NCBI RefSeq assembly: GCF_053078305.1 | Contig: NZ_CP166879.1 | Direction: 5' to 3' (one strand) | Length of the DNA stretch: 64,000 bases | In this document: one piece after another, positions 26,154-33,057 of the stretch | Position numbering within the stretch: position 1 is the stretch's first letter | How the letters are laid out: each line of letters starts with the position of its first letter | Program-made: the position numbers and the translations under genes | Notes under the pieces: model-generated | The model's input: only the letters and a program-made list of their open reading frames with translations | The model's database searches: none | What the model was told of the DNA's origin: nothing

Positions 26154-27818
26154 TTAAAACGTTTCCCAGTTCTCCCCGCTATCTGCCACTGCCATTTTAC
26201 GCGGCGTAGCTGGCGTCACGGTTTTTACCACAGCCGATGTTTCACGCTGCTGTTGCTGCTGTTGCTGAATCCGGAACACTGCCACAGCTTCGGTCAGGCG
26301 ACTGGCCTGCTCTTCCAGCGCGGCGGCGGCAGCGGCAGATTCTTCCACCAGCGCGGCGTTCTGTTGAGTTACCCGGTCCATCTCAGCAACCGCTAAGCCA
26401 ACCTGATCGATACCACGGCTCTGCTCATCAGAAGCAGAAGCTATTTCGCCCATAATGTCCGTCACGCGGGTCACAGCACTGACAATCTCCGCCATTGTTT
26501 CCCCGGCGCTTTCGACCAGCGTAGAGCCAACATCCACTTTCCCCACCGAGTCTTCAATCAGGCTTTTAATTTCACGAGCCGCCTGGGCGCTACGCTGGGC
26601 CAGATTACGCACTTCTCCCGCAACCACCGCAAAACCACGTCCTTGCTCACCCGCACGCGCTGCTTCAACCGCCGCGTTCAAAGCCAGAATATTGGTCTGG
26701 AAAGCAATGCCGTCAATTACGCTGATAATATCGGCGATTTTCTGCGAACTGGTGGAGATATCACGCATAGTCTGCACCACGTTATCTACCACTTTGCCGC
26801 CGCGTTGCGCCGTTTCAGAAGCACTTAACGCCAGGTGGCTGGCCTGGCGCGCATTCTCGGCGTTCTGTTTCACCGTTGCGGTCAGTTGCTCCATGCTGGC
26901 TGCCGTCTCTTCCAGCGAAGCGGCCTGTTGCTCGGTGCGCGAAGAGAGATCATTATTGCCGGTAGCGATTTCGCTGGCACCGCTATAGATGGCATTGGCC
27001 CCGTTGCGCACATCACCGACGGTACGCATCAGTTCTCCCTGCATATGGCGCAAACTCTCTGCCAGTTGCCCCATCTCATTAGAGCCATCCACCTCAATCG
27101 GTTTCACCAGATCGCCGCCTGCAATATGACGAATGCTGTCAATCAGGCGATTCATTGGCGCTACCAACGAGGCTTTAATACCGAACCAGACGGCGAAGAT
27201 GACCGCCAGTACGACGATCATCACGCCCAACAGAATCCACATCGCCTGGCTGTAGGAGGCATTGTTATCGCTGACGGCGATATCATAGAGCCGATCGTTT
27301 TGCTCCATGTAAGCCACATACTGCTTCTCGAAACCGTCCTGATATCCCTGGGTCGGCTGATCAAAGAACTCGTTGATTTTGCCTGCACCTAACAGTTGGA
27401 TCAGCTCCGCCAGCGCATTGTGATAAATATCGTAATTACGTTTGATCTCTGCCGCTGCGGCGGTGCTCTGACGCGGGTCACGCGGCAACGCTTCGTAATC
27501 CGCCCAGTTTTTTTCCGCCTGTTTCAGCGAAATACTGGCACTCTGCATCAGCTCAGCAACGGTTGAACCGCTACCAATATTATTCTGATCCATCATGTAG
27601 CGGATACCCGCGCGGTTGAGGGTGTTACGCGTCTGCAACAACGCGACCCAGCTGCCATTCAGCGTGGATTGCTGCTGACGAATGGTTTGTAAAACAGTGA
27701 AATTTTCTTTGTCATTCTTTAAGGCATTAAAGAACAGACCGCCTGATGTCAGTTGTAAAAGGCCAAAAACGGCCAAAACCAGCAGTAAGCTGGTCACGAT
27801 CTTGATACGTTTTAACAT
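26154..27818 (-). CDS. tsr: methyl-accepting chemotaxis protein I (serine chemoreceptor)
   Basis: 554-aa ORF ending NWETF; recognised as Tsr; contains a 7-Gln CAG/CAA tract. Confidence 0.95.
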
Positions 27819-28045
27819 GGTTTCTCTTTCCTGTGGACCGATGCAAGATTTTCGGCCTGAAATGAGAAAACTTTATAGGTAGCGACTTGAAACTGGTTAA
27901 TTTTACCTCACTTTTTTAATTTTTGTTCAAAAATACAATAACCACTTATTGATACATTTTCTGTTCTTATTTTTTTCACACGAATTGTATCTATTTTGAA
28001 CGAAATATTTTATAGAGTGTGGAATTTTAAGAAAGGACATCTGAA

Positions 28046-28588
28046 ATGTTAAACCGTGACTTCGATCATCTCTCAACGCTATTACATCTCTTTTTTGAAC
28101 GTGAGGATATTTGCCAAAAGCTTAATATTATTGACCAAAACAATATCACCGGTTGGGAAGTGTGGTTCCAGGTAGAGTTTGCTAATATGCTCTGCTCAAC
28201 AGACCATGAATGGTGGCGTGAACAAGCACTTTCCTGTGATATGCGCAAAAAACCTGAGCGCCCGACACTACGCACAGATTTCTTACTACGTAAAAAAGGC
28301 TGGGCACAAGATAGCTATATCGCGCTTGAAATAAAACAAAACAGAGACGCGACCAGTTGTGTTAAAAATATGATCGCAGACTTAGAAAAAAGCGCAAAAA
28401 TAAAACGTTCCGAACTCGATTTACGCAGTTTCTGGACCTTGGGTATCACCCCTATGATAGACAGGGAAAGGCTGGACTCTCTCATCGATTGCTATTTAGA
28501 TGAGAAATTTTATCTTACTAAATCTCGTAAAAAACACGTTTTACTTAAAGAAATAAATAACACACCATATTGCTATATTGTTATTTAA
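28046..28588 (+). CDS. hypothetical protein (orphan, AT-rich; possible PD-(D/E)xK-like motif)
   Basis: 180-aa ORF with AAAGGA Shine-Dalgarno 7 nt upstream; low GC vs flanks; residues TDFLL...YIALEIK fit D-x18-E-x-K. Confidence 0.5.
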   Translation: MLNRDFDHLSTLLHLFFEREDICQKLNIIDQNNITGWEVWFQVEFANMLCSTDHEWWREQALSCDMRKKPERPTLRTDFLLRKKGWAQDSYIALEIKQNRDATSCVKNMIADLEKSAKIKRSELDLRSFWTLGITPMIDRERLDSLIDCYLDEKFYLTKSRKKHVLLKEINNTPYCYIVI

Positions 28589-28696
28589 TATTTATAGCAT
28601 GAATATAATTTTTAAATGAGTTACACAACCGAGGGCTAAAAATCGCTTCGGTTGTGATCATCATCACATAAATAACCTTCATAAACCTTGCTCAAA

Positions 28697-28745
28697 ACCG
28701 CTCAACCGCAAAACTGACCGCTTACGTCCCTAAAATAACCACTCA
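28697..28745 (+). promoter_or_regulatory. BtsR (YehT) binding site: direct repeats ACC(G/A)CT(C/T)A upstream of btsT
   Basis: ACCGCTCA (28697), ACCGCTTA (28717) and ACCACTCA (28738); last two separated by 13 bp as reported for the yjiY promoter. Confidence 0.5.
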
Positions 28746-28880
28746 GTTATTTACCTTACTTTACGCGCGCGTAACTCTGGCAGCATCACTGCAGGATAGC
28801 GGTCAATTTACCTCCTCAAACGCAACGCAAACCTAGAACGGCTTCGGCCAACTATTAATCAATACATGCCAGGTTTTACT

Positions 28881-32284: not shown

Positions 32285-32587
32285 TTATTTTTTGTTCTGA
32301 TCGCGCAGCATCGCTTCACGTAAAATTGCGTTCAGGCGAGTTTGATAGCCTTTACCTGGTCGCTTCAACCATTCCATCACATCAGCATCAATACGCACCG
32401 AAGCCTGAGTTTTCAATGGCCGATAAAACTTACCACGTTCGGCGTTAGACCATTGCTCATCGCTGGAAGGTGGGATATCACTGTAATCAATATCTTCGTC
32501 GGATTTATTCGCCAGCGCCTTCAGTTCGGCCTCATGCTGCACATCGAGTGTAGAGGGTGCCCCTCGTTTATGTTTAACCATGCTCAT
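32285..32587 (-). CDS. BrnA-like antitoxin (DUF4415/CopG-like)
   Basis: About 100 aa from MSMVKHKRG; C-terminal RIDADVMEWLKRPGKGYQTRLNAILREAM; start overlaps the stop of the upstream toxin ORF. Confidence 0.65.
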   Translation of the reverse strand: MSMVKHKRGAPSTLDVQHEAELKALANKSDEDIDYSDIPPSSDEQWSNAERGKFYRPLKTQASVRIDADVMEWLKRPGKGYQTRLNAILREAMLRDQNKK

Positions 32588-32888
32588 AGCGACTCCTCTC
32601 TTTACGATCTGCTTTTCGTGCACTGATGATTCGAATAATTTCATTTCCGCTTTCGAAACGGATGGTATGCGCAACCAGAATAACCACGATACCGTGAACC
32701 AAGCCGATAGTCTGCCAGCGATACTCACCGTTTTCTATGCGATCTTGCTGTGACAAATGTTGTGGATCATCAAACACTAACACCGCATCTTCAAAGCGGA
32801 TGCCATGTTTCACCCGATTACTTTTGGCCTTGTTTGCATCCCATTCAAACTCCATTGGCATAGTTGCCATCCCTAATTGTATATACAA
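32574..32888 (-). CDS. BrnT-like toxin (DUF497, RelE/ParE superfamily ribonuclease)
   Basis: Motif EFEWDANKAKSNRVKHGIRFEDA...RIISARKADRKER typical of BrnT; several in-frame ATG starts (32888 to 32855). Confidence 0.65.
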   Translation of the reverse strand: MYIQLGMATMPMEFEWDANKAKSNRVKHGIRFEDAVLVFDDPQHLSQQDRIENGEYRWQTIGLVHGIVVILVAHTIRFESGNEIIRIISARKADRKERSRYEHG

Positions 32889-33057
32889 AAATGTATCTAC
32901 AATTATTCTGCAATTATAGCGTTGATGTTGGAAATAGCATCACGTTTTGGATAATCAACCATGAAATTGACAATGAGTAAGTTGGACTTGATTCATCCAA
33001 TAGAATTTCTCGCCTGACATGGCACACTAAACACCTCGCTGTCGTTAAGGGATTACC

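Follow-up and report, generated by a model that had tools for sequence, protein, structure and literature searches.

A candidate stand-alone PD-(D/E)xK nuclease gene in the variable tsr-btsT interval of Escherichia coli

Closest described systems

The PD-(D/E)xK superfamily offers the closest described likenesses to the product of an orphan open reading frame (ORF) that lies between tsr and btsT in some Escherichia coli genomes, but none of its existing family models captures the family formed by this protein and its homologs (the ORF family), in which two extra N-terminal helices and a family-specific motif, GWExWxQxEF, are the family's own. Between the ORF protein and the small homodimeric type IIP enzymes (OkrAI, BamHI, BglII, and BstYI), identity is 8 to 11%, and, unlike type IIP restriction-modification (R-M) systems, the ORF family comes without an adjacent methyltransferase or any other conserved partner. 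The sole Pfam family that gave a signal is the N-terminal domain of TnsA from Tn7-like elements (PF08722), with a weak alignment over residues 56 to 108 that spans D78 and E95-x-K97; however, the scores are below threshold, TnsB/TnsC-type neighbors do not recur, and the C-terminal domain of TnsA is absent from the ORF family. The likeness to the nuclease domain of Wolbachia CinB (PDB 7esz; 9% identity) is one of fold only, CinB being a 659-residue chain of a eukaryote-targeting two-gene system, unlike the ORF protein of some 180 residues. Finally, integron cassettes have been reported to harbor phage defense systems (bioRxiv 10.64898/2026.03.17.712381), and single-gene defense cassettes of this sort resemble the Vibrionaceae members of the ORF family, which are flanked by attC sites in units of about 700 bp. 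The screen described in that paper, however, included no protein of the ORF's kind, no tested cassette is linked to the ORF family, and the E. coli copy lies outside an integron and lacks attC.

The copy analyzed here is located in a 64,000-nucleotide stretch of contig NZ_CP166879.1 (RefSeq assembly GCF_053078305.1), referred to below as the window. Our main reading, to which we assign a probability of about 0.55, is that the ORF functions as an accessory gene whose product is a metal-dependent PD-(D/E)xK endonuclease of one domain, able to act alone; its value would lie in protecting against phages or other mobile DNA.

The gene and its interval

A first-pass annotation of the window had proposed that the tsr-btsT interval carries a 180-codon ORF with its own Shine-Dalgarno sequence, and both are indeed present (Table 1), with a purine-rich stretch of the AAGGA type found just 5' of the start codon in all seven aligned enterobacterial loci. 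The low-GC, foreign composition that had been claimed for the stretch is equally evident: GC content is 0.31 to 0.44 over approximately 27750-28800, versus 0.52 to 0.59 in tsr and btsT, and GC at third codon positions (GC3) is 0.38 in the ORF, versus 0.60 in tsr and 0.69 in btsT. Names for the flanking genes were taken from the annotation of a collinear genome, which aligns to the window across the tsr-btsT stretch without indels and at ca. 98 to 99.6% identity. The Tsr protein encoded in the window has 554 residues, versus 551 in K-12, and contains a run of seven glutamines near its C terminus.

TABLE 1 Features of the tsr-btsT interval in the window
Feature	Position	Strand	Description
tsr	26154-27818	-	Left flank; name from annotation of collinear genome
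tsr promoter, presumed sigma-28 type	27849-27875	-	TAAAGTTT-N11-GCCGAAAA; marks left border of variable segment; from sequence; kept in 7/7 loci
Low-GC variable segment	27877-28697		821 bp; carries the gene; unrelated 136 bp in K-12
Shine-Dalgarno sequence	28033-28037	+	AAGGA, 8 nt 5' of ORF ATG; recognized by sequence
Protein-coding gene (ORF)	28046-28588	+	180 aa plus stop, ATG start; RefSeq WP_000934391.1, "hypothetical protein," in near-identical genome
Predicted catalytic core codons	28175-28336	+	From secondary structure of model and conservation
E44	28175-28177	+	In first helix of core; unchanged in all 78 diverse members
D78	28277-28279	+	Second core strand; ≥90% conserved
E95	28328-28330	+	Third core strand; ≥90% conserved
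K97	28334-28336	+	Third core strand; ≥90% conserved
Stem-loop	28624-28656	+	Stable, 11 bp; 36 nt past ORF stop; no U-tract; z -5.2
CRP-like box	28653-28668		TGTGA-N6-TCACA; upstream of btsT, overlaps 3' arm of stem-loop; kept in 7/7 loci
Direct repeats, presumed BtsR/YehT-type box of btsT promoter	28697-28724	+	ACCGCTCA / ACCGCTTA; right border of variable segment; kept across genera (7/7 loci)
btsT	Start 28881	+	Right flank; name from annotation of collinear genome

The same annotation had held K-12 to have no gene at this site, which is correct: in MG1655, btsT (b4354) and tsr (b4355) are adjacent and separated by a gene-free spacer of 377 bp. Only the ends of that spacer align with the window, nucleotides 1 to 58 with 27819-27876 and nucleotides 195 to 377 with 28698-28880. 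The K-12 spacer contained no ORF remnants; the E. coli segment from 27819 to 28880 was free of repeat scars and of any sequence resembling attC. The borders of the slot coincide with regulatory boxes of the two flanking promoters, that of tsr, which we take from the general FliA consensus to be of the sigma-28 type, and that of btsT, whose direct repeats are presumably bound by BtsR. The CRP-like box has its K-12 equivalent in TGTGATATGAATCACA. Elsewhere, the same slot is filled differently: some E. coli genomes, such as that of strain WAT (L064), have the hpa (4-hydroxyphenylacetate) operon there, and most others have the short K-12-type spacer. With at least three spacer states in E. coli (short spacer, nuclease gene, and hpa operon), tsr-btsT is thus a multistate variable site.

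Within the spacer, a promoter scan returned no sigma-70 consensus upstream of the ORF on the plus strand, a terminator scan returned no canonical intrinsic terminator, and an Rfam search returned no RNA family. Hairpins that differ in sequence from the stem-loop downstream of the ORF were found at the equivalent position in Citrobacter, Phytobacter, and Enterobacter; to judge from this shared position, the element is probably a 3'-end or insulating structure, and one that may be conserved across genera. The AT-rich upstream region without a clear promoter and this hairpin at a conserved position would also fit a toxic effector, kept in check by means that do not show up as an adjacent gene (an RNA antitoxin, H-NS silencing, or a host factor) and acting, possibly on RNA, as an abortive-infection or addiction toxin. 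A solitary nuclease without a methyltransferase does need a safeguard, and some PD-(D/E)xK structural neighbors, e.g., cap-snatching endonucleases, cut RNA. We nevertheless regard such a toxin as very unlikely: neither a conserved small ORF nor an Rfam RNA adjoins the gene, the upstream noncoding region is not conserved between genera, and promoter-like sites on the minus strand are no more common than in shuffled sequence.

As for its occurrence, the check proposed by the first-pass annotation, presence or absence at the tsr-btsT junction, showed that the segment is present in 362 of 5,426 complete E. coli genomes (6.7%), always as a single chromosomal copy at this site, and is labeled "hypothetical protein" in RefSeq. 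O157:H7 strains predominate among the carriers in the sampled match list. A few E. coli genomes have a divergent allele (89.5% nucleotide identity), which differs from that of the window by 47 synonymous and 8 nonsynonymous substitutions (dN 0.019, dS 0.68); the resulting dN/dS of 0.027, calculated from two E. coli alleles because dS between E. coli and Citrobacter is saturated, indicates strong purifying selection on the ORF protein. For the flanking tsr and btsT genes of these two genomes, dS is only about 0.07, which shows that the alleles have a history separate from that of their flanks. The order tsr-gene-btsT is also found in Citrobacter, Enterobacter, and Phytobacter, where, for Citrobacter and Phytobacter, identity to the E. 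coli copies is 77 to 80% for the ORF protein, 82 to 87% for Tsr, and 94 to 95% for BtsT. Since the same site is occupied in four enterobacterial genera, the gene is not a recent arrival there.

Full-length homologs in many genera, together with the strong purifying selection, establish that the orphan ORF is a real gene rather than a chance ORF. Its location between two regulated promoters, and the fact that sequence-based annotation yields no function for it, might still bring to mind a spurious reading frame or a noncatalytic DNA-binding modulator of the tsr and btsT promoters. This explanation is hardly credible and has already been largely refuted by the occurrence of homologs in unrelated genomic contexts, by the selection just described, and by the conservation of the catalytic acidic and lysine residues.

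Predicted fold and sequence searches

The AlphaFold model of the ORF protein (pLDDT 87.5) has an alpha-beta-beta-beta-alpha-beta core, with the acidic residue on the helix and the D...(D/E)-x-K residues on strands 2 and 3 that characterize the PD-(D/E)xK superfamily. The comparison proteins, with their figures, were R.SwaI (7.4), the restriction-endonuclease-like protein 3ijm (7.1), the R2 element polypeptide (PDB 9dou; 7.0), Cas4 SSO0001 (6.9), BglI and OkrAI (6.8 each), BglII (6.5), and NucC (6.3). In an alignment of 78 sequences with 23 to 46% identity to the query, E38 is at least 90% conserved, as are the predicted catalytic residues listed in Table 1, all of which are invariant in 18 closer members. 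The three motifs from which the first-pass annotation had derived a PD-(D/E)xK-like core are all present, EVWFQVE at residues 38 to 44, TDFLL around D78, and ALEIK around E95-x-K97, and the predicted fold agrees with that derivation, since E44, D78, E95, and K97 are the conserved residues; only the spacing had been miscounted, the actual arrangement being D78-x16-E95-x-K97 and not D-x18-E-x-K. A structure prediction devoid of any nuclease-like fold had been named as an outcome that would overturn the proposal, and the prediction did the opposite. We therefore consider it very probable that the protein has a restriction-endonuclease-like PD-(D/E)xK fold and likely that it is an active nuclease. 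The model predicts just one domain; SRA, winged-helix, and other modification-reader modules are absent from it.

Sequence searches, in contrast to the fold, connected the protein to hardly anything described. NCBIfam gave no match; in Pfam, the best hit was the TnsA-like N-terminal domain, at an E value of 0.11 for the ORF protein and of 5.4e-3 for the best of the 78 members, none of which reached 1e-3. Among known antiphage systems, there was no match in NCBIfam and none in PADLOC-DB 2.0.0 (library dated 2023) beyond a weak partial one to "oMTase" (E value of 9e-4), which we set aside as uninformative because it covers only 66 C-terminal residues (108 to 173). The one PHROGs match (E value of 0.21) is not meaningful, and a sequence search of the PDB with the single protein and two profiles returned only chance matches to transthyretin. 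A search of the literature for O157 locus tags near tsr and for WP_000934391 produced nothing on the gene; ECs5315 of O157:H7 Sakai is tsr. When 1.84 billion representative proteins were searched with a profile, on the other hand, 322 clusters emerged at an E value of ≤1e-3, nearly all members of which are single-domain proteins of 175 to 195 residues matched end to end. The ORF family is, then, an uncharacterized and uncatalogued one (some 320 clusters, about 180 residues) within the known PD-(D/E)xK superfamily. Three candidate domain fusions (P0067, P0131, and P0171) were discarded, as their sequences look like overextended ORFs or run-ons into a neighboring transposase fragment.

Mobility, neighbors, and possible role

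A scan of one genome per species (alignment A1) located 51 loci, in Enterobacterales, Vibrionaceae, Alteromonadales, Pasteurellaceae, Pseudomonas, Halomonadaceae, Acinetobacter, Neisseria and other betaproteobacteria, and Campylobacterota; the family is mainly gammaproteobacterial, with some members in the latter two groups. In nearly all of these loci the GC content of the gene is lower than that of the locus, and in several species the copy is broken or pseudogenized. No relatives were detected by tblastn in 50,697 phage and 72,556 plasmid records, and the predicted viral structures in BFVD gave only distant fold matches (TM of ≤0.43).

In Vibrionaceae, the homologs are bounded by attC sites, lie in arrays, and form cassettes of about 700 bp. 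In Vibrio genomosp. F10 (L042), for example, the gene (608-1150 of that locus) sits between attC sites at 452-588 and 1148-1287; V. harveyi, V. tasmaniensis, and Grimontia each have attC directly beside the gene, and in V. hepatarius it lies within an array of attC-like repeats (loci L045, L041, and L061 and the array of L043). The E. coli copy, by comparison, has no attC-like similarity and is flanked by core genes. The gene thus moves as a self-contained unit, in Vibrionaceae as an attC-flanked cassette and in E. coli through exchange of alleles between tsr and btsT.

Such mobility raises the question of a selfish or relic nuclease, i.e., a free-standing homing-like endonuclease or a stranded integron cassette that persists by cutting or converting empty sites and confers no benefit on its host. 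The cassette form in Vibrionaceae, the solitary insertions in gaps between core genes (tsr/btsT, after acnD, and after tamB), the sharp-bordered replacement of unrelated DNA in E. coli, and the import of alleles independently of their flanks would all be expected of such an element. The E. coli segment, however, bears neither attC-like sequence nor repeat scars, phages and plasmids have no copies, each E. coli carrier has exactly one copy at one site, and retention of that site across genera with a dN/dS of about 0.03 points to selection on the protein within the host. On balance, we find a purely selfish gene quite unlikely.

An all-against-all BLAST comparison of 54 loci disclosed no neighboring gene family that recurs across genera and, more specifically, no recurrent methyltransferase, the E. 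coli neighbors being tsr and btsT; nor was there a conserved adjacent ORF of the kind seen in toxin-antitoxin pairs. Because no gene family accompanies it and the apparent fusions look artifactual, the ORF protein is an autonomous module. In five Acinetobacter genomes (L049, L053, L055, L056, and L057), the gene lies 87 to 156 bp downstream of acnD, on the same strand. This site, next to the gene for 2-methylisocitrate dehydratase, is a second fixed genus-level location. Other housekeeping neighbors include tamAB, ubiD, queG, fdhD, and a citramalate synthase gene, and the remaining ones are IS elements, polysaccharide loci, and many unannotated proteins. Known defense genes adjoin the gene in about 5 of some 30 sampled nonsyntenic loci, where SIR2-HerA, a retron reverse transcriptase, an OLD/PtuA-like ATPase, HsdR with an integrase, and AbiEi/WYL were seen. 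In one of these loci, from Betaproteobacteria bacterium SCN2 (L036:8640-11695), the SIR2-HerA pair is immediately downstream and an MnuA-like membrane nuclease immediately upstream. When PADLOC was applied to 20 immediate neighbors, a single weak candidate was the only match.

The frequency of housekeeping neighbors, a single chromosomal site kept across genera, and strong purifying selection are also what one would see if the protein were a cellular nuclease unrelated to defense, namely, a small endonuclease akin to Hjc, RecU, or YraN that is structure specific or works in repair/recombination and that serves as an optional housekeeping helper in some lineages. Its size, single domain, and E...D...ExK layout do resemble those of small resolvase-type PD-(D/E)xK enzymes. 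Several observations argue against this interpretation, which we consider unlikely: the gene is patchy, being present in 6.7% of E. coli genomes, and its GC content is low relative to that of every host; Vibrionaceae carry it as an integron cassette, and several species have pseudogenized copies; its alleles are exchanged independently of the flanks; and no resolvase family has a sequence match to it.

A role in defense or against mobile DNA would, in our analysis, be the likeliest function, a view we hold tentatively and at somewhat under even odds. What suggests it is that the gene is accessory, occurs in cassette form, now and then has defense genes as neighbors, and lies, in the window, 3.7 kb from a BrnTA/type I R-M cluster. 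The first-pass annotation had presented the gene as an undescribed defense or abortive-infection candidate; the nuclease fold on which this idea was built is upheld, while the step to defense, with defense neighbors in only a minority of the sampled loci, is plausible. Counted against it are that known defense models yield one weak partial match, that most sampled neighbors are housekeeping genes, IS elements, or unannotated, that the cassette status in Vibrionaceae is suggestive only, and that the protein has no separate modification-reading domain in its predicted structure, as well as the lack of a plus-strand sigma-70 consensus upstream. The long stay at one location, the tsr-btsT slot in four enterobacterial genera and the position behind acnD in five Acinetobacter genomes, is a further such point, since a gene with fixed sites across genera resembles a stably kept cellular gene more than a defense gene with fast turnover.

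Under our main reading of a functional accessory nuclease gene, the protein would cleave nucleic acid alone, by a metal-dependent mechanism and probably as an oligomer. With no methyltransferase or antitoxin encoded alongside, its host must escape damage by other means. We speculate that this could be achieved through substrate selectivity, with modified or structurally unusual foreign DNA as the target, or else through low, silenced expression or tight control from the AT-rich upstream region; the selective value of the gene would then come from protection of its carriers. A bolder version, which we think doubtful, is that of a minimal one-protein immune nuclease of about 180 residues that operates without a methyltransferase, sensor, or partner, restricts incoming DNA by a feature that host DNA lacks, owes its spread to the integron cassette form and to allele replacement, and has become fixed, unnoticed, in the O157:H7 lineage as a defense gene beside a classical restriction cluster.

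Provided that the protein does work as a stand-alone nuclease, the restriction-endonuclease-like superfamily gains a family not catalogued before, and there is one more single-gene candidate, a very small one, for a part in protecting against phages or mobile DNA. A new PD-(D/E)xK family is unlikely to surprise a specialist, and should the nuclease turn out to be of the repair type or selfish instead, the finding would be of ordinary interest. Since both natural carriers (many O157:H7 strains) and a noncarrier (K-12) exist, the gene is a clean and cheap candidate for experiments.

Several other features of the window deserve mention. The restriction cluster, at 32285-40651 and just past yjiA, begins at a distance of 3.7 kb from the orphan ORF and comprises a BrnT/BrnA toxin-antitoxin pair (named from the collinear genome), type I hsdM, hsdS, and hsdR, and a gene for a 388-residue "restriction endonuclease" without an NCBIfam family. 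The M subunit of the type I R-M system (34288-35903) is split near 35017 into ORFs of 251 and 287 residues by a 4-bp deletion relative to the near-identical strain TUM13936, in which hsdM is intact; judging by this lesion, the strain that the window comes from may not have a working copy of this system. Beyond approximately 35 kb, collinearity with TUM13936 is lost owing to indels. Further downstream, at 43242-44186 on the minus strand, lies a gene for an Rpn-family recombination-promoting nuclease/putative transposase, likewise of the PD-(D/E)xK type. Finally, a pentapeptide-repeat protein of 724 residues is encoded at 49826-52000 on the plus strand, its counterpart in TUM13936 being annotated at about 767 residues.
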